Shown here: positions 2,256 through 62,163 of the stretch, one piece after another
Layout: every line of letters begins with the position of its first letter
Numbering within the stretch: position 1 is the first letter of the stretch
Origin: Alphaproteobacteria bacterium
GTDB taxonomy: Bacteria > Pseudomonadota > Alphaproteobacteria > UBA828
Direction of reading: 5' to 3'
DNA length: 64,000 nt
NCBI GenBank assembly: GCA_963422645.2
Contig: CAXXVO010000008.1
Span: 544,001 to 608,000, forward strand
Position numbers and translations under genes: made by a program
The notes under the pieces: model-generated
Told to the model about the DNA's origin: nothing
What the model saw: only the letters and a program-made list of their open reading frames with translations
The model's database searches: none

Positions 2256-3077
2256 TCACTGCCGCCCTTCGGCGTTCTCGCCGCGCGCGTTCAACAGGGT
2301 TGGATCGGCGCCGCCTCGCAGCAGCGCAGTAGCGGCCTTGCGATCTTCGCTCCCGACCAGATGCAAGGGGGTGTTGCCGCCGACGGGATCCCGCGCATTG
2401 GGGTCCGCCCCCGCCTTCAGCAGTCTCCGGATCACGTCTGTGTCCCCGGCCATGGCCGCATGGTGGAGCAGCGTGTACCCCTCCGCGTCCCGCGTGTTGG
2501 GATCCACACCGCCAGCGATCATCGCGATGGCAACGCGGGCTCGGCCGTCCTGCAACGCGATCTTCGCAGCATGGCCAACATTCGCACCCGCCTCGATCAG
2601 CGCGGCTGCGGCCCTCGGATCGCACGCAAAGCTCAGCGGTGGGCCCGAATGGAAGTCTTCGTAGTGATAGGGCCCGTCATCGCCCGCAAATATGCCGCGC
2701 TCATCATAGTGCGCATGACGCTCGCCCTCGCTTGCGAAGTTCCCGGAGAACACCTTTTCCCTGTTCGGGTCTGCGCCGCCCTTCAAGAGCGCGGCTATCG
2801 TCTTAAGTTTGGTCGATCGTATGTTGTACTTTTGCTTGCCCCGCGCCATGTCGCGTGGGCACATCAGATGATGCAATGGTGTATTGCCACCATCCAGGTG
2901 AACGTCTGGCGAGGCACCTCCCTTCAATAGCTCGGATACGACCCTTGCCGCGCGCGCATCTTCTCGGGGGCTGAAAAACTCTATTGCCGTGAAGAGCGGG
3001 GTTCTCGAACCGACTGCCGTCAGGTTCGGATTCGCACCGCCTTCGATTAACTTCGCGACCAGAATAGGCAATTCTTT
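2256..3077 (-). pseudogene. Ankyrin-repeat lipoprotein, C-terminal part (split by IS66 insertion)
   Basis: Repeated GANPN/GADPN...TPLH ankyrin motifs; joins in frame to 5870-6288 when the IS66 and one TSD copy (AATTCTTT) are removed. Confidence 0.88.
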
Positions 3078-3219
3078 GTAACTACCCAGGTACCCCAATC
3101 CTGAGTTGAGGACGGTGATTATGGCGGCGGCCGCGGCCTGGTTCTGCCACCGCGATTGGTTCTTGACCTCATAGAGTTGCGGGACTATGGACCGCTCTCT
3201 CGCGTGACGGGAGCGGTCC

Positions 3220-3885
3220 ATGGGGTATTTCGGCTCGAAGGCGACAGCAGGTCTGTGCCAAGCGCTGATTGCGCTGATGCCGCCGCACTCCGTCTACATC
3301 GAAAGCCACCTTGGGGGCGGGGCGCTGATGAAGCGCAAGCCGCCGGCCGTGCGTTCGATCGGCATCGACCGCGATGCGCAGGCGCTCGAGGCCTTCGTCT
3401 GCGACTACCCGGTCGATCTGGTTCACGGCTGTGCCCATGACTTCCTGGCCTCGTTCCCGTTCCTGGGCCCGGAGCTGGTTTACAGCGATCCGCCCTATCT
3501 GCACGCGACCCGCCGCTCGGCGCAGCGCTACCGCTTCGAGTACGAGGAGGCCGGCCACGTCGCGCTTCTCGCGCTGCTCAAGGCTCTGCCCTGCCAGGTC
3601 ATGATCTCGGGCCATCCGTCGGCGCTCTATGACGAGGTGCTGGCGGGATGGCGCCGGCTGGCGCTGCAGGTCACGACCCAGGGTCTGGTGCGAACCGAGG
3701 TCGTCTGGTTCAACTACGCCCCCGACCGGATGCATTGGGCCAGCCACGCAGGCCGGAACTTCACCGACCGCCAGCGCATCAAGCGCAAGGCAGCCAACTG
3801 GGGCCGGCGCTACCAGGCCTTGCCGCCGGGCGAACGCCTCGCCGTGCTCGCCGCCATGATGGCCGTCGAGGCCGAAGACACGTGA
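3220..3885 (+). CDS. DNA adenine methyltransferase (Dam/D12-like, phage type), IS cargo
   Basis: N-terminal GYFGSK, SAM-binding-like YIESHLGGGA, catalytic SDPPY, MISG and EVVWFNY motifs; RBS GGAG upstream; 221 aa. Confidence 0.85.
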   Translation: MGYFGSKATAGLCQALIALMPPHSVYIESHLGGGALMKRKPPAVRSIGIDRDAQALEAFVCDYPVDLVHGCAHDFLASFPFLGPELVYSDPPYLHATRRSAQRYRFEYEEAGHVALLALLKALPCQVMISGHPSALYDEVLAGWRRLALQVTTQGLVRTEVVWFNYAPDRMHWASHAGRNFTDRQRIKRKAANWGRRYQALPPGERLAVLAAMMAVEAEDT

Positions 3886-4977
3886 CGGTGTCGCACTGGC
3901 ACGAAGACCTCGCCGCCCGTAACGAGGCCTTCTGCTGCCTGAAGGAGCTTCTCGAGCCATCATCCCTCGCAACCACTGTCGTCGTTGCCGTCCGGGAATG
4001 GGGGCAGGGGCTGCTGCGATCAGCCACCGCGCTCGCCCGGGAAAATGCCGCACTCGAGCAGGAGAACGCGGCCCTGCGCGAGCGCATCGCCGAACTCGAG
4101 CGCAGCGCGGCCCTCAACAGCACCACAAGCAGCAAGCCCCCCGCCAGCGACGGGCTCAAGAAGAAAAGCGGAGCCCAGAGGCGCACCCAAAGCCAGCGCG
4201 GAAAGTCCGGCGGGCCCAGTGGCGGCCAGCCCGGCCACAAGGGAACCACCCTCGCGCGGAGCGACAGCCCGGACCGTGTCGTCGATCACCACCCCTCCAC
4301 CTGTTCCGGCTGTGGCGTCGAGCTCTCGGACGCCGACCGGCAAGGCGCGCCCGCCTGTCGGCAGGTCTTCGACGTACCCGAGCCGCAGCCTCTCGAGGTC
4401 ACCGAACACCGCGCCCATCGCTGCCTCTGCGGCGCATGCGGCACGCTGACACGAGCCGCCTTCCCGCCGGGCGTCACCGCCCCGGTCCAGTACGGCCCTC
4501 GCATCACCGCTTGGGTGAGTTACCTGCTGTACGCCCAGTTCGTGCCCGAGAAGCGTCTGGCCGAACTCATGAGCGACATCTTCGCGGTGTCCATCTCCAC
4601 TGCCACGATCGCCGCCATGGGCCGGCGCACAGCGCAGCGCTTCGAGGGCTTCCTCGACCATGTCGCCGATCTGATCCGCACGCAGGCGCCGGTCAAGCAC
4701 CTCGACGAGACCGGCCTGCGTATCGCCGCCCGTACCCGCTGGCTCCATGTGCTGTGCACCCCGTTGCTCACCGTCCTGCGCATCGGCGAGGGACGCGGCG
4801 ATGTCGAAAAGAACCTGAAAGGCATCCTCGTCCACGACGACTTCGCCCCCTACTTCACCATCAAGGGCGTCCGCCACGGCGCCTGCAACGCACATCACCT
4901 GCGCGAACTCCAGGCCCTGATCGACATCGAGAAGGAGGAATGGGCGGCGAGCATGCACCGCCTGCTTCAGCGCGCGC
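3882..4977 (+). pseudogene. IS66 transposase (single-ORF type), C-terminal part replaced by foreign DNA
   Basis: NSTTSSKPPASDG, GGQPGHKG, CxxC zinc motifs, RQVFDVP, HLDETG, HDDF, CNAHHLREL; GTG start overlaps the MTase stop (GTGA 3882-3885); sequence diverges from copy 2 after 4977. Confidence 0.9.
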
Positions 4978-5645
4978 TCAGCGGGTACGTCCAGGATCTC
5001 GGGCGCGGGCATCAGCCCTCGCCCTCGTCGAGGCCTGCGTCGCCGGAGAGGCGGGCGGAGAATGCGGTGCGGCGGAGGCGGCGGGCGATGCGGTCTGCGT
5101 TCATGTCCTCCCAGAGCTGGCGCTCGTCGAGCGCGGCACGGAAGAAGCAGCCGACGGCGGAACTCAGGAGGGAAGTCAGGGACCTCCAGGATGTCCGCGA
5201 CATCGTCAGGGCCAGCCGCAGGGAGACGCCCAAGCACTGCCGGGCCGGCGACCTCGACGAAGCCGAGCAGCTCGATGCCTTGCCCGCGCGCGAGCGCCTC
5301 CTCCTCGACGTCATCCGGATGATCGCCTACCGCGCCGAAACCCGCATGATGCTTCCCGTCATGCAGGCGCAGGGCCACAAGCCCCATCCCCGGAAACTGC
5401 TTCAAGCGCTGCTCACCGCCGATGCCGACATCCTGCCGGATCCTGGCAATGGCCTCCTGCGGGTCCACATTCTTGGCCTCGCAAACGACGCCTGCGACCG
5501 TTGGATCGATGCGGTTCTGAGCGACCTGAACGCCACCGAAACGGTCTTCCCCGGCACCCGTCTGCGCATAGTCTACGACATCGACGGGGCCTCGGAATCC
5601 GCGCGGCTCGTGTCACCTAAAATCAGCAGAGGTCAGGAAGTCTGA
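4978..5645 (+). mobile_element. Foreign mosaic segment inside IS66 copy 1: a phage-like gene junction (minus strand) plus the 3' end of an unrelated putative transposase
   Basis: Absent from copy 2, where it corresponds to 60794-61176. About 5140-5645 encodes ...LLDVIRMIAYRAET...DLNATETVFPGTRLRIVY...GQEV*, resembling the C-terminus of an unclassified transposase family. Confidence 0.6.
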
Positions 5646-5869
5646 TCCTGCAAATCCTGGCGCACCCGGAACCGATGCAGCTGATCCCTATACTGCGCTC
5701 CTGAACTTCTCCGGCTCATCCTGAGTATCGCTGTCCTCTCATCTTGTTCGCGACGCGGCGTTCATCATCCTCTCGCGCTCAAGAGAGTAGGCACCCCCGC
5801 GGCGTGGGGGCGTTGACGCAAAAGGAACTGGCTTGTTCCATAAGAGAGAGGGGGTACCTGGGCAGTTAC

Positions 5870-6288
5870 AATTCTTTGTCGCTGCTATTGCACTTGAGGA
5901 CTCTGTGCAAGGCGGAATCGCCTCCTTTCCATTCCTTTTCGCGTCGATTGGGGTTCGCGCCGGCCTTAAGTATAATGTCCACAACTTGTAGAGTATCCGG
6001 TGTTAACTCTCTGCAGACATGGACGTGAAGAGGGGTACGTCCCAGCTTGCCATGAACATTCGGATTCGCGCCGTCCTTCAGCGCAACATGCACCATCATG
6101 GGATTGCTGTCGGTACTCAACACGCGTTTCTCAGGTCCGCTCAGCTTGACCTTTGAATACAAGCCACCCACGGGCGCCGCACAGGCGGCGAGAGAAAGGG
6201 CGGCAAGAAGAGCTAATGGCGTTGCACGCGTTGCAAGAACCCTCATTGCCCCATCGTGTGTGCGCTGCATGTATTTCCTCCTGGACAC
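5870..6288 (-). pseudogene. Ankyrin-repeat lipoprotein, N-terminal part
   Basis: Signal peptide with lipobox (LALLAALSLAAC), then GANPN...GRTPLH ankyrin repeats; ends in KEL at the TSD, and KEL recurs at the start of the C-terminal part. Confidence 0.85.
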
Positions 6289-46048: not shown

Positions 46049-46158
46049 TGGCCGTGCGCCGATGCCCCTCTCCAAGGACAGGCGCGGCCCCTCAACACCC
46101 GCGCGCCCTCGCGGGGCGCGATGCAGGAGGCCAGCACGCCACATTGCGAACACAAAGA

Positions 46159-48047
46159 GTAACTGCCCAGGTCGTCTGATTTGTCATTTTGGGCCAGTGG
46201 ATTGAGGCGTTTCTCGTTCGGAGTTGGTGGAAAGGGCTTGACGGGAATTTCGGGAAATGACTCAACAACGACATGAGCAATCCCGAGTCGCCGCGCGGCC
46301 CTTCGACGGGAGCAGCGCCCGAAACGCCCGCGCAGAAGATCGCCCGCCTGGAGGAGGAGAACGCCCGGCTTCGGGAGGAAAATGCCTGGCTTCGGCAGCA
46401 GAACGCGCGGCTGGAAGAGCAAGTCGCGCGTCTCGTCGAGCGCATCGAGGAGTTGGAGCGCCGTCTCGGCCTCAACAGCGGCAACAGCGGCAAGCCGCCT
46501 TCGAGCGATGGGCTGAGGAAGCCGAATTCGAAGCGGCGAACCCGAAGCCTGCGCGGCAAATCGGGCCGCAAGCCCGGTGGCCAGCCCGGCCACAAGGGCA
46601 AGACGCTGCGCCGCGCCGATCACCCGGATCGGGTGAAGGATCACGTCCCGGCTTCCTGCAAGGGATGCGGTTCGCCGCTTTCGGACGCGGCCAGGGCGGG
46701 AACGCCCGTCGCCCGCCAGGTGTTCGATCTGCCCGAGCCGAGCCCCCTGGAGGTGACCGAGCACCGGGCGCATGCCAAGTGCTGCGGGCATTGCGGGACG
46801 GTGACCCGGGCGGCGTTCCCCGACGGGGTGTCGGCGCCGGTGCAGTACGGCCCGCGCATTGCCGGGGTGGCGGTCTACCTTCAGCACGCTCACTTCCTGC
46901 CGGAGGATCGGCTGTCGCAGGTGATGGCCGAGCTCTTCGGCGCGCCGGTGACGGCTGCGACGTTGGCGACGATGAGCGAGAGGGCGGCCGAGCGGCTTGC
47001 GGGACGCGGCCTTGCACATACAGGACCTGGCGGCGGGCACGGCGCGGGTGAAACACATGGACGAGACCGGCTTGCGGATCGGCGGTCAGACGCAGTGGCT
47101 TCATGTGATCTGCACGCCGCTGCTGGCGGCGTACCGGGTCAGCGGCAAGCGCGGCGCCCTGCTCTCGGGTGTCTCCGGCATCGTCGTGCACGATCACTGG
47201 AAGCCGTACTTCGCGATGGAAGGGGTGGAGCACGGCCTGTGCAACGCCCATCACCTGCGGGAGTTGCAGGCGCTGGTGGACATCGAAGGGGAGGCTTGGG
47301 CCCGGCGGATGCAGCAGCTCCTGCGCCGAGCCAATCGCGCCGCCCGCATCGCGCTGGACAAGGATATCGCCGTTCCGGCGAGGCTTGTGGCGCTGATCGA
47401 GCGCCGATACGACGAGATCATCGCCGATGCGCTGGCCTTTCACGAGAGCCAACCACCGTTCTCGCCTGGCAAGAGGAAGAAGCGCCGGAAGCGAAGGATC
47501 GGTCACAATCTGGCCTTGAGGCTGCGCGACCACAAATGCGCGGTGCTCCGGTTCCTGATCGACCTCGAGGTCGGGTTCACGAACAACGAGGCCGAGCGCG
47601 ACCTTCGGATGATGAAGCTGCGCCAGAAGATCTCCGGGGGCTTCCGGTCCGCGCAGGGGGCCGAGAACTTCGCCATCCTGCGCAGCGTCATCACCACCGC
47701 CAGAAAGCAGGGCTGGAATATCATCGAAGCCCTGACCAGCCCATCGGATCGGCTCATCGCCACCGTCAAGTGCGCGTAAGCTCACCTGGCACGGGTTCTC
47801 CAACAGCGGAGCCATTCTCATAAACGATCATGGTCGACGCCGTGCTGGACCACCCCATAGAATGAAAATCGGTGCCCGTCGCGCGGGCGGACTTCGGGCC
47901 ACATCGGGGTAGCTTACCGGTCGCAGTCCGCAAGAGGGGCATCGTGAGCTGTGAAACCCGGCGACCACAGAGGAGCACACGGGCGTCGCGTGGGTAGCGT
48001 TGTGCCGAATCCCAGAGAATTTTCACAGCAAGAACCTGGGCAGTTAC
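46159..48047 (+). mobile_element. IS66-family element without cargo
   Basis: Perfect 14-bp IRs GTAACTGCCCAGGT / ACCTGGGCAGTTAC; TSD CACAAAGA (46151-46158, 48048-48055). Confidence 0.95.
46273..47779 (+). pseudogene. IS66 transposase, frameshifted near 46997
   Basis: N-half (NSGNSGKPPSSDG, GGQPGHKG) and C-half (HMDETG, HDHW, CNAHHLREL, TNNEAERDLR) lie in different frames. Confidence 0.88.
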
Positions 48048-48176
48048 CACAAAGATTTGACAACACGGGCGCAAGCAGAGGATTCATGCTGCACGAGTTC
48101 TGGTGTCCGGCGATTCGCGACGACGCTCTGTCCGTGCGTGCGGATAGCTGATGACACGGATGTAAGGAGACGATCC

Positions 48177-55297: not shown

Positions 55298-55426
55298 TGG
55301 GTCACGCGCGCGAGACGGTTCCCGCTCGCACGACCAAAGGCCGTCTGGGTCGCGCGCGAGACGGTTCCCGCTCGCACGACCAAAGGCCGTCTGGGTCGCG
55401 CGCGAGACGGTTCCCGCTCGCACGAC
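55298..55426. repeat. Tandem array of about 2.8 palindromic 46-bp units (REP-like)
   Basis: Unit TGGGTCGCGCGCGAGACGGTTCCCGCTCGCACGACCAAAGGCCGTC starting at 55298 (+2 nt), 55346 and 55392. Confidence 0.88.
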
Positions 55427-56376
55427 TAGGGCGGCATACGGCCGGCGAGCCAGTCCTCGATCAGGCGGCGGGAGATCGAATAGCGGCCCGGCAGGCGGAA
55501 GTCGTCGCTGTCCCGGCAGCCGAGCAGCTCTCGCCGCGGATACCAGTGGGCGTACTCCAGCTCGGTCTCGTCGACCGCGATCTCGCGGGAGAGCGCTTGC
55601 GCCATGAAGCCCACCATGAGCGTACCGGGGAAGGGCCAGGGCTGCGAGGAGTGGTAGCGGACATCGCCCACGCGCACGCTGCTTTCCTCCTCGATCTCGC
55701 GGGCCACGCACTCCTCCAGGCTCTCGCCGGGCTCCAGGAAGCCGGCAAGGGTCGAGTGCATCCCCGGCGGCCAGCGCGACTGGCGGCAGAGAAGACAGTC
55801 GTCACCGTCATGGACCAGTGTTATCACCGCCGTGTCGGTGCGCGGAAAATGGACCGCGCCGCAGTCCTCGTTGGTGCAGCGCCGTTGGTGGCCGGCCTCG
55901 AGTGCCGCCGCCGCAGCACCGCAGGCGCCACAGAAGCGATGCCGGCGGTGCCAGTAGGTGAGCCCCCGGGCGTAAGCGATCAGCGCGGAATCGGGCCCCG
56001 GTACGATCTGCACCAACTCGCGCAGGTCCATCATCTCGCCGCCGGGCGAGCGTGCGACCAGGGCCTCGGCCTCCACATGGGAGAGATCGACCACGAAATG
56101 CGCCGCGCCGGCGGCGCCGTCCTCGACCTCCACACCTAGCAGCGAGGGCTCAGCACGGTCGTCAAGCAGCCCGTCGAGGGTTTCACGGTAGTGGATGACG
56201 GGGAGGGGCTCCGGGCCCAGGCGGACGACGGCATTCTGCCGCCAAATCGCGACGTAGCGTGTGGAGGGGTCGTCGAAACGGGCCCGAAGCCATGCCGCGT
56301 CGGTCCGCAAATGCGCGGCCCGGTCAAGCGGCATTCCCGAGAGCACGTTGCCGCCGATGCGGGTAAGGTCGGTCAT
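55426..56376 (-). CDS. nudC: NADH pyrophosphatase NudC
   Basis: FCGACG zinc ribbon, FPRTD, AGFLEPGESLEECVAREIEEE Nudix box, SQPWPFP. Confidence 0.95.
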   Translation of the reverse strand: MTDLTRIGGNVLSGMPLDRAAHLRTDAAWLRARFDDPSTRYVAIWRQNAVVRLGPEPLPVIHYRETLDGLLDDRAEPSLLGVEVEDGAAGAAHFVVDLSHVEAEALVARSPGGEMMDLRELVQIVPGPDSALIAYARGLTYWHRRHRFCGACGAAAAALEAGHQRRCTNEDCGAVHFPRTDTAVITLVHDGDDCLLCRQSRWPPGMHSTLAGFLEPGESLEECVAREIEEESSVRVGDVRYHSSQPWPFPGTLMVGFMAQALSREIAVDETELEYAHWYPRRELLGCRDSDDFRLPGRYSISRRLIEDWLAGRMPP

Positions 56377-58707: not shown

Positions 58708-59033
58708 CGGAGCCGACATAACCCCGCAATATCAAGCGGCGACGGTCGAAGCCGGACCGCGATTCCCTACGGCACGACGCGGTACTGCGAAGACGTCCGC
58801 TCCGTTCGCGTCAGGACGAGATTGTCTTGTGGAGCAAAGGGTCGGCGATCGCGACCTTGGCAGCGCGGCCGACGCCGATTCTACAGAATCTGTAACTACC
58901 CAGGTACCCCAATCCTGAGTTGAGGACGGTGATTATGGCGGCGGCCGCGGCCTGGTTCTGCCACCGCGATTGGTTCTTGACCTCATAGAGTTGCGGGACT
59001 ATGGACTGCTCTCTCGCGTGACGGGAGCGGTCC

Positions 59034-59699
59034 ATGGGGTATTTCGGCTCGAAGGCGACAGCAGGTCTGTGCCAAGCGCTGATTGCGCTGATGCCGCCGC
59101 ACTCCGTCTACATCGAAAGCCACCTTGGGGGCGGGGCGCTGATGAAGCGCAAGCCGCCGGCCGTGCGTTCGATCGGCATCGACCGCGATGCGCAGGCGCT
59201 CGAGGCCTTCGTCTGCGACTACCCGGTCGATCTGGTTCACGGCTGTGCCCATGACTTCCTGGCCTCGTTCCCGTTCCTGGGCCCGGAGCTGGTTTACAGC
59301 GATCCGCCCTATCTGCACGCGACCCGCCGCTCGGCGCAGCGCTACCGCTTCGAGTACGAGGAGGCCGGCCACGTCGCGCTTCTCGCGCTGCTCAAGGCTC
59401 TGCCCTGCCAGGTCATGATCTCGGGCCATCCGTCGGCGCTCTATGACGAGGTGCTGGCGGGATGGCGCCGGCTGGCGCTGCAGGTCACGACCCAGGGTCT
59501 GGTGCGAACCGAGGTCGTCTGGTTCAACTACGCCCCCGACCGGATGCATTGGGCCAGCCACGCAGGCCGGAACTTCACCGACCGCCAGCGCATCAAGCGC
59601 AAGGCAGCCAACTGGGGCCGGCGCTACCAGGCCTTGCCGCCGGGCGAACGCCTCGCCGTGCTCGCCGCCATGATGGCCGTCGAGGCCGAAGACACGTGA
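59034..59699 (+). CDS. DNA adenine methyltransferase (protein identical to 3220-3885)
   Basis: GYFGSK, SHLGGGA, SDPPY. Confidence 0.85.
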   Translation: MGYFGSKATAGLCQALIALMPPHSVYIESHLGGGALMKRKPPAVRSIGIDRDAQALEAFVCDYPVDLVHGCAHDFLASFPFLGPELVYSDPPYLHATRRSAQRYRFEYEEAGHVALLALLKALPCQVMISGHPSALYDEVLAGWRRLALQVTTQGLVRTEVVWFNYAPDRMHWASHAGRNFTDRQRIKRKAANWGRRYQALPPGERLAVLAAMMAVEAEDT

Positions 59700-61236
59700 C
59701 GGTGTCGCACTGGCACGAAGACCTCGCCGCCCGTAACGAGGCCTTCTGCTGCCTGAAGGAGCTTCTCGAGCCATCATCCCTCGCAACCACTGTCGTCGTT
59801 GCCGTCCGGGAATGGGGGCAGGGGCTGCTGCGATCAGCCACCGCGCTCGCCCGGGAAAATGCCGCACTCGAGCAGGAGAACGCGGCCCTGCGCGAGCGCA
59901 TCGCCGAACTCGAGCGCAGCGCGGCCCTCAACAGCACCACAAGCAGCAAGCCCCCCGCCAGCGACGGGCTCAAGAAGAAAAGCGGAGCCCAGAGGCGCAC
60001 CCAAAGCCAGCGCGGAAAGTCCGGCGGGCCCAGTGGCGGCCAGCCCGGCCACAAGGGAACCACCCTCGCGCGGAGCGACAGCCCGGACCGTGTCGTCGAT
60101 CACCACCCCTCCACCTGTTCCGGCTGTGGCGTCGAGCTCTCGGACGCCGACCGGCAAGGCGCGCCCGCCTGTCGGCAGGTCTTCGACGTACCCGAGCCGC
60201 AGCCTCTCGAGGTCACCGAACACCGCGCCCATCGCTGCCTCTGCGGCGCATGCGGCACGCTGACACGAGCCGCCTTCCCGCCGGGCGTCACCGCCCCGGT
60301 CCAGTACGGCCCTCGCATCACCGCTTGGGTGAGTTACCTGCTGTACGCCCAGTTCGTGCCCGAGAAGCGTCTGGCCGAACTCATGAGCGACATCTTCGCG
60401 GTGTCCATCTCCACTGCCACGATCGCCGCCATGGGCCGGCGCACAGCGCAGCGCTTCGAGGGCTTCCTCGACCATGTCGCCGATCTGATCCGCACGCAGG
60501 CGCCGGTCAAGCACCTCGACGAGACCGGCCTGCGTATCGCCGCCCGTACCCGCTGGCTCCATGTGCTGTGCACCCCGTTGCTCACCGTCCTGCGCATCGG
60601 CGAGGGACGCGGCGATGTCGAAAAGAACCTGAAAGGCATCCTCGTCCACGACGACTTCGCCCCCTACTTCACCATCAAGGGCGTCACCGCCACGGCGCCT
60701 GCAACGCACATCACCTGCGCGAACTCCAGGCCCTGATCGACATCGAGAAGGAGGAATGGGCGGCGAGCATGCACCGCCTGCTTCAGCGCGCGCGCAGGGC
60801 CGCCCGCTTCGCCCGTGAGAAAGACCGTCAAGTCCCCGCCTCCCTGGTGGCCCGCATCTCAAGGGCATGGGACCGTATCCTCGAAGAAGCCATCGCCTTC
60901 CATGAGGCCCAACCGCCGCTCCAGATCGCAAAGCGAGGGCGAAAGAAACGCCGCATCGGCCACAACCTCGCGCGCCGCCTTCAAAAGCATAAGGAGGGCT
61001 GCCTGCGCTTCCTCACCGACCTGCGCACGCCGTTCACGAATAACGAGGCGGAGCGTGACATCCGTATGAACAAAGTGCATGAGAAGATCTCAGGCGGCTT
61101 CCGCTCCCTGCAAGGCGCCTGCAACTTCGCCGGAATGCGCAGCGTCATCGTCACCGCTCGAAAGCAAGGCTGGAACATCCTGCAAATCCTGGCGCACCCG
61201 GAACCGATGCAGCTGATCCCTATACTGCGCTCCTGA
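59696..61236 (+). pseudogene. IS66 transposase, full length but frameshifted (+2 nt near 60686)
   Basis: GGCGTC-AC-CGCCAC here versus GGCGTCCGCCAC in copy 1; the C-terminal TNNEAERDIR...ISGGFRS lies in the shifted frame. Confidence 0.88.
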
Positions 61237-61296
61237 ACTTCTCCGGCTCATCCTGAGTATCGCTGTCCTCTCATCTTGTTCGCGACGCGGCGTTCA

Positions 61297-62163
<867 letters not shown>

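Follow-up and report, generated by a model that had tools for sequence, protein, structure and literature searches.

Analysis of a 64,000-nucleotide stretch of the genome of an alphaproteobacterium (GTDB lineage UBA828; GenBank assembly GCA_963422645.2, contig CAXXVO010000008.1, positions 544,001 to 608,000 of the forward strand), hereafter the window, reveals an insertion sequence (IS) of the IS66 family, present there in two copies, which carries as a fixed component a gene (ORF1) for a 221-amino-acid protein with a predicted methyltransferase fold. The stop codon of ORF1 overlaps the start codon of the transposase gene, and ORF1 is preceded by a promoter-like box that contains a characteristic palindrome. 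We propose, at a probability of roughly 55%, that ORF1, which appears to belong to the family of the plasmid protein Upf31, is an autoregulator that acts on the palindrome of its own promoter and throttles the expression of both ORF1 and the transposase. Explanations in which ORF1 is an orphan methylase, a passive cargo gene or a modifier of the element ends rank below this one.

Copy 1 of the ORF1-carrying IS occupies positions 3078-5869 of the forward strand, between target site duplications AATTCTTT at 3070-3077 and 5870-5877, and copy 2, which is 2510 bp long, occupies positions 58892-61401 of the same strand, between duplications CAGAATCT at 58884-58891 and 61402-61409. Thus, the observation of an initial annotation of the window, made from the sequence alone, that the same unit bounded by inverted repeats occurs twice with different 8-bp target site duplications was confirmed with respect to both the coordinates and the duplications. 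An assembly duplication as the origin of the two copies is ruled out because their flanks and duplications differ. The ends of the element are 19-bp inverted repeats that start with GTAACT, the left one being GTAACTACCCAGGTACCCC (3078-3096 in copy 1) and the right one (5851-5869) showing one mismatch. The same annotation had noted the hexamer GGTACC in both repeats (3089-3094 and 5853-5858) and its absence from the ends (GTAACTGCCCAGGT) of a related IS66 element in the window that lacks ORF1; this stands as an observation, and the hexamer is rare in the source genome (0.115 per kb).

The two copies are nearly identical over positions 3077-4981, where they differ only by base 3193, upstream of ORF1, by base 4978 and by a 2-bp indel, and there are no differences over the last 225 bp (5645-5869 in copy 1). 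ORF1 is located at 3220-3885 in copy 1 and at 59034-59699 in copy 2, on the forward strand in both cases, and encodes the same protein in both; the overlap of its TGA stop codon with the GTG start of the transposase gene (GTGA), another feature noted at the outset, is present in both copies. The transposase gene is disrupted in each. In copy 1, the 5' two thirds of the gene (3882-4981, forward strand) are followed by 663 bp of foreign DNA (4982-5644) in place of 379 bp of the gene; this foreign segment consists of about 162 bp of one repeat followed by 521 bp that form the 3' end of a Transposase_29 (PF21804) element abundant in the genome, and codes for the C-terminus of the Transposase_29 protein. 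In copy 2, the transposase gene (59696-61236, forward strand) contains a frameshift that results from a 2-bp insertion (CA) at 60685-60686.

The status of the element becomes apparent at the scale of the whole genome. A BLAST search of the source assembly (5.9 Mb in 23 contigs) with copy 2 as the query returned 105 matching pieces, comprising 36 full-length copies and about 70 further fragments; this is the genome-wide count of copies that the initial annotation had suggested, and ORF1 is present in all 36. Perfect 8-bp duplications flank 22 of these copies and are all mutually different, and the remaining 14 have unmatched flanks. ORF1 is open in each of the 36, in 34 at a fixed offset and in the other two once the loss of 1 bp close to the left end is taken into account, and the transposase frame is full length (512 or 513 amino acids, or an equivalent open frame) in 34, the exceptions being copy 2 of the window and one other; these 34 copies are 2507, 2508 or 2511 bp long. 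With a copy count that is far above chance, 22 distinct duplications and intact open reading frames, the ORF1-carrying unit is therefore a recently active insertion sequence in which ORF1 has moved along every time. The contrast between an intact methylase and two broken transposases that was initially drawn holds for the window itself, where the same 221 residues are encoded twice, but not as a property of the element: the broken transposases of the two window copies are local decay, and there is no need to repair a transposase from them, as the rest of the genome offers 34 intact copies.

The genomic copies also present several patterns of a different kind. Some of the 14 copies without matching duplications have each other's flanks (GGAGAGTC/GAATACAT, reciprocally), for example C6:391794-394300 and C9:531722-534228, which points to inversions or other rearrangements caused by recombination between copies. 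The Transposase_29 element is very abundant, its 663-bp segment yielding 140 BLAST pieces in the source genome, and has inserted repeatedly at a single position of the ORF1-carrying IS; many copies are split as 1-2078 plus 2073-2510 with a 6-bp overlap, which suggests that the Transposase_29 element has a preferred target inside the ORF1-carrying IS. Furthermore, at least five ORF1-carrying copies lie inside the 5' leader of IS66 copies that lack ORF1, at two sites with the flanks GGCGTTTC and GAAATGAC, which match the ORF1-lacking element of the window at 46205-46212 and 46253-46260 (the region compared being 46196-46266); this arrangement could reflect nesting or a hotspot between two related elements. 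Judged by eye, the target duplications give the impression of being A+T-rich against a genome of 67% G+C.

The assignment of the element to the IS66 family is supported by both the transposase and the ends. The intact genomic transposase scores 289.7 bits against NF033517, the NCBIfam IS66 model (cutoff 180), matches PF03050 at E 4.4e-41, and contains the DUF6444, zf-IS66 and DDE_Tnp_IS66 domains. Ends that start with GTAA and 8-bp duplications are typical of IS66, and the element has 19-bp terminal repeats of this kind together with the duplications described above. No tnpA or tnpB was found in the element; because ORF1 is the only other conserved frame, we place the element in the single-transposase IS66 group, which we take to be the ISBst12-type group of ISfinder usage. 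Members of this group, including the ORF1-lacking or "cargo-free" neighbor in the window (46159-48047, forward strand; target site duplication CACAAAGA at 46151-46158 and 48048-48055; transposase frameshifted), share with the ORF1-carrying element the DUF6444, zf-IS66 and DDE_Tnp_IS66 domains, the 8-bp duplications and the absence of tnpA and tnpB, and the ends of the neighbor also begin with GTAACT and are nearly identical over 14 bp to those of the ORF1-carrying element. The latter differs in the addition of about 620 bp, encompassing the promoter box, the leader hairpin and ORF1, between the left end and the transposase, in the fusion of the transposase start to the ORF1 stop, and in a conserved 45-residue N-terminal extension of the transposase. 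Of 10 related loci that were examined, 9 retain the GTGA overlap together with the first 45 residues of the transposase; the deviations among the 10 are L082, which lacks the overlap, and L073, in which a deletion shifts part of the N-terminus to another frame. Apart from this overlap, the alphaproteobacterial lineage has neither a promoter nor a start dedicated to the transposase.

With respect to the ORF1 protein, a search of Pfam with this sequence alone detected no family at E<=0.01, the scores against the two relevant models being below the curated cutoffs (PF02086, 12.1 bits, cutoff 22; TIGR00571, 22.1 bits, cutoff 114.85), and a direct sequence search of solved structures with ORF1 produced no matches. 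The ORF1 family is large, with more than 3700 matches in 90% clusters and 5660 representatives at 50% identity, and 31 of 32 diverse members touch PF02086 at E<=1, the best at 9e-15. In the alignment of these 32 members, D90, P91 and P92 are invariant, Y93 is conserved in at least 90%, and E28, G32 and G34 of motif I are conserved as well; the resulting DPPY signature (residues 90-93) is found in 111 of 117 full-length cluster representatives and in 119 of 120 close relatives. Motif I and DPPY are about 55 residues apart in ORF1. Thus, of the features that define the D12 class of Dam-like N6-adenine DNA methyltransferases, ORF1 possesses the catalytic motif IV (DPPY) and the S-adenosylmethionine-binding motif I, and misses the curated score cutoffs.

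The AlphaFold model of ORF1 (pLDDT 90.6) consists of a Rossmann-type core followed by two C-terminal helices (181-199 and 203-220) that form a helical hairpin within a basic C-terminal region. Foldseek ranks 4rtj, 2g1p (Dam of Escherichia coli) and 2dpm (DpnM) first for this model (E-values from 3e-7 to 7e-7, TM scores of 0.50-0.56), and other methyltransferases follow close behind, among them several RNA methyltransferases with similar scores. On this basis, ORF1 is predicted to combine a compact Dam-like methyltransferase fold with a C-terminal helical hairpin. Prediction of a homodimeric complex gave a score of 0.29 against a mark of 0.42, which counts neither for nor against a dimer.

Between element lineages, the dN/dS ratio is 0.12-0.28 for ORF1 and 0.22-0.30 for the transposase (one near-identical pair, with dS 0.006, was excluded), indicating that ORF1 is subject to purifying selection and is at least as constrained as the transposase. 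Together with the presence of ORF1 in 36 of 36 copies and the conserved GTGA coupling, these values bear out the view, taken in the initial annotation, that the methylase-like gene moved as part of the element, and show it to be a built-in component of this IS66-family element that is mobilised with it and maintained by selection.

Comparison with relatives in other genomes shows which features accompany ORF1. We collected 80 related loci from species-representative genomes with close ORF1 relatives; many of these loci are multiple copies within one genome and, being drawn from far fewer than 80 genomes, they are not independent. An IS66 transposase directly follows ORF1 in 69 of the 80 loci (detected with tblastn) and in one more (L094) according to Pfam, and in one group of these loci identity is about 70% for ORF1 but only about 30% for the IS66 transposase. 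Another seven loci from four genomes (L080, L081, L083-L086 and L100) have an IS701-family transposase (NF049999, 309 bits) downstream of ORF1, both genes lying in a carrier of 2.78 kb that is bounded by inverted repeats of its own (AGCTCGACTTTGTACATTT) and by duplications of CTNAG type.

The promoter-like box is located at 3163-3191 of the window (forward strand) and consists of TTGACC (3163-3168), the palindrome half-sites CATAG (3170-3174) and CTATG (3185-3189) separated by 10 bp, and a weak -10 element, TATGGA (3186-3191). Its layout resembles that of a sigma-70 promoter, with the palindrome lying across the spacer and the -10 element. The consensus box, TTGAC-N3-ATAG-N11-CTATG, is situated 57 bp upstream of the ORF1 start and matches the strict pattern in 71 of the 80 related loci, the IS701-family carriers among them, with one-base variants in at least 7 of the remaining 9. 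In the source genome, CATAG-N10/11-CTATG occurs 59 times, compared to about 3 expected, and all of these occurrences are left ends of the ORF1-carrying element. Moreover, the same palindrome is found, twice in each case, upstream of stand-alone plasmid homologues of ORF1 in Xanthomonas (56% identity) and Shewanella (46%), that is, in two of the six plasmids examined. The palindrome is linked to ORF1 both in the two IS families, which are unrelated, and on part of the plasmids, and it is the palindrome in the gene's own promoter-like box, rather than the element ends, that travels with ORF1.

The box is followed by a predicted leader hairpin (3185-3224, forward strand), in which CUAUGG pairs with CCAUGG so that both the ribosome-binding site and the ORF1 AUG are covered. 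The version of this hairpin in copy 2 has a folding energy of -27.4 kcal/mol (z = -5.9), with none of 200 shuffled sequences folding as well. A hairpin is kept in the leader of each lineage, with frequent G-U pairs and some compensatory changes, and covariation is modest in the two lineages when each is aligned separately; a single RNA alignment across both IS66 lineages yielded no consensus structure because their leaders are not alignable. In the distant IS66 lineage (L090-L099), the hairpin arms (TGATCCAA and TTGGATCA) each contain a GATC, so that they could be targets of the Dam methylase of gammaproteobacterial hosts.

The first indication of what ORF1 does comes from Upf31 of the IncP-1beta plasmid pBP136, to which ORF1 is 45% identical over 222 columns, that is, over the full length (BLASTP, E 8e-68), with DPPY and motif I kept in both; from this alignment, ORF1 appears to be a member of the Upf31 family, C-terminal domain included. 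Upf31 has been studied by Elg et al. (Mol Biol Evol 2025, msaf062; PMC11997246). Upf31 did not restore GATC methylation in a restriction digest assay, and SMRT sequencing detected no base modification signal or motif upon its expression in methylase-free Escherichia coli (PMC11997246). It represses its own promoter, reducing expression from 4.76 to 0.09 XylE units in the preprint of the study, with inverted repeats at that promoter as the likely operator, and its C-terminal domain is predicted to mediate dimerisation and KorB binding; methylation of another substrate, such as RNA, is kept by the authors as a possibility (PMC11997246). The parallels with ORF1 accordingly extend from the full-length similarity, the two motifs and the basic helical C-terminal region to the carriage on mobile DNA and the presence of an inverted repeat in the promoter upstream of the gene, the counterpart of which in the IS would be the palindrome in the promoter-like box. 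Unlike ORF1, Upf31 is encoded by a stand-alone plasmid backbone gene beside transfer genes, with no coupled transposase, and its proposed partner KorB has no counterpart in the ORF1-carrying element.

We therefore favor autoregulation, along the following lines. The element would be expressed as one operon, in which an internal promoter with the CATAG-N10/11-CTATG palindrome between its -35 and -10 elements is followed by the leader hairpin, ORF1 and the coupled transposase gene. The promoter-like box would thus be an actual promoter, ORF1 would bind to it, and binding would be repressive, lowering the expression of ORF1 and of the transposase alike; because the transposase would be translationally coupled to ORF1 through the GTGA stop-start overlap, autoregulation of ORF1 would set the transposase level. 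Since ORF1 would work in trans on every copy, repression would extend to all 59 left ends and increase with copy number, becoming tighter as copies accumulate. The leader hairpin, for its part, would block the translation of read-through transcripts that enter from outside the element, in the manner known for IS10 and IS50.

Several observations weigh against this proposal. The ATAG/CTAT palindrome is absent upstream of the plasmid homologues in Sphingobium, Vibrio, Acinetobacter and pBP136, that is, in four of the six plasmids examined, and the operator proposed for Upf31 consists of CAGCATCG repeats rather than the ATAG/CTAT half-sites of the ORF1 box; Upf31 itself is only 45% identical to ORF1. 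A scan of positions 3060-3960 for consensus sigma-70 promoters called none, because the -10 element (TATGGA) is weak. The palindrome half-sites are about 15-16 bp apart, center to center, which is unusual for a simple dimeric repressor. Finally, a near-invariant DPPY and a conserved motif I fit an enzyme better than a mere DNA-binding protein.

This near-invariance suggests that the active site matters, and hence site-specific methylation of the operator is a live possibility. We entertain, as a tentative and on balance unlikely alternative, a portable, self-contained epigenetic switch in which ORF1 would N6-methylate the adenines within the ATAG/CTAT half-sites of the promoter from which it is itself expressed. 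The transposase would then be switched off on fully methylated DNA and expressed in a brief burst on hemimethylated DNA, just after replication or upon entry into a new cell, reproducing the IS10/Dam logic without dependence on the host, in a cassette acquired by no fewer than two unrelated transposase families. Such a switch would have gone unnoticed in the SMRT experiment on Upf31 if the DNA that was read lacked the cognate operator, as is suggested by the construct named there, an expression vector with upf31 (PMC11997246).

Could ORF1 instead be an active orphan N6-adenine DNA methyltransferase with a short recognition motif, modifying the genome as well as the element and serving in anti-restriction or in the rewriting of the methylome by copy number? 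The almost invariant DPPY and motif I and the Dam-like fold would be expected of such an enzyme. Moreover, stand-alone relatives of ORF1, all less than 60% identical to it and including upf31.0 of IncP-1beta, are mainly found on plasmids of the conjugative kind (134 of 196 plasmid records), which often encode anti-restriction methylases, and the source annotations of ORF1 relatives mostly read 'DNA adenine methylase'. However, the only tested relative, Upf31, showed neither GATC methylation nor an SMRT motif when over-expressed in methylase-free E. coli (PMC11997246), the stretch of about 55 residues between motif I and DPPY leaves little room there for a target-recognition domain, and an orphan methylase would leave unexplained why a specific palindrome of its own promoter accompanies the gene into two IS families. 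We regard this explanation as improbable, and the description of ORF1 as an 'epigenetic writer' in the initial annotation is in doubt: the fold and the retained DPPY speak for it, and what is reported of Upf31, a relative without a methylation signal that nevertheless represses itself, speaks against it.

The occurrence of the same cassette with two unrelated transposase families, and also alone on plasmids, would suit a passive or selfish cargo gene without a role in transposition, for which the IS elements are mere vehicles. Its distribution is patchy, close relatives (E<=1e-60) being detected in 3 of 400 other genomes that evenly sample the class and in none of the 3 that belong to the same family; hence the ORF1-carrying element has spread horizontally. 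However, the cassette invariably precedes the transposase and is read in the same direction, and since the transposase of the alphaproteobacterial lineage depends on the GTGA overlap for its start and has no promoter of its own, regulation of ORF1 would necessarily be regulation of the transposase. A passive role thus seems quite improbable.

Methylation of a substrate other than DNA, namely RNA or protein, possibly the transposase or its mRNA, would accord with the RNA methyltransferases among the Foldseek matches with similar scores and with the option kept by the authors of the Upf31 study (PMC11997246), but the best fold matches and the DPPY motif belong to DNA adenine methyltransferases and nothing points to a specific non-DNA substrate, so that we consider it very improbable. 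Least credible, and largely refuted by comparison, is the suggestion, prompted by GGTACC at both ends of this element and its absence from the cargo-free relative, that ORF1 methylates this or another site in the inverted repeats and thereby controls end recognition by the transposase: the two sites lie in opposite arms of the same inverted repeat and so amount to a single feature, GGTACC is not conserved with ORF1, being confined to the left end in close relatives (right ends GTAACTGCCCAGGTCTGATT) and found at neither end of the distant IS66 lineage (GTAACTACTCACCC) or of the IS701-family carrier, and the ends of the latter two share nothing with those of this element.

The autoregulation proposed here has partial parallels in better-known elements. 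In IS10/Tn10 and IS50/Tn5, host Dam acts on GATC sites in the transposase promoter, and a fold-back structure blocks the translation of read-through transcripts. The ORF1-carrying element resembles them in a possible adenine-methylation site in the transposase promoter and in a predicted fold-back structure directed against read-through, and differs in that it would supply its own enzyme and its own site, the methylation being putative, in place of host Dam and GATC. InsA of IS1 and OrfA of IS911/IS3 are small helix-turn-helix regulators that are encoded upstream and, through frameshifting, have an N-terminus in common with the transposase. ORF1 likewise is the product of a small first gene ahead of the transposase; the expression of the two is coupled, and the promoter of the element itself is the proposed site of action. 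In contrast to InsA and OrfA, it has a predicted methyltransferase fold, is unrelated to the transposase and is able to move between IS families.

A literature search retrieved no paper on an IS66 element with a methylase-like gene, although the element may have an entry in the ISfinder or TnCentral catalogues; what is new here is the link to Upf31 and the exclusivity of the palindrome to the element throughout the genome. Insertion sequences are usually described as a transposase with, at most, small helpers of transposition; here, a gene with a methyltransferase fold has become a fixed and selected part of the element, together with its own putative promoter and operator, at 36 full-length copies in one genome, and IS701, an IS family not related to IS66, has acquired this cassette as well. 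The link to Upf31 offers the first functional handle on a large family (5660 clusters at 50% identity) and suggests that its annotation as 'DNA adenine methylase' may be wrong or incomplete. Furthermore, these observations raise the question of a mobile element with its own copy-number sensor, and of whether that sensor is a repressor, a site-specific methylase, or both.

Several minor observations concern the window and the base composition of the element. Copy 1 interrupts the gene for an ankyrin-repeat protein with a lipoprotein-like N-terminus (2256-3221 and 5866-6288, reverse strand), and copy 2 is inserted in the last codons of the gene for an amino-acid ABC-transporter ATPase (61297-62163, reverse strand), the frame of which now enters the element. 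At 55305-55442, a 46-bp unit is repeated three times in tandem, two of the units being identical and the third 74% identical. In the element (2508 bp), GANTC, the usual site of the alphaproteobacterial CcrM methylase, is mildly depleted, with no occurrence compared to 4.6 expected from the genome-wide density, and GATC occurs 13 times compared to 19 expected.

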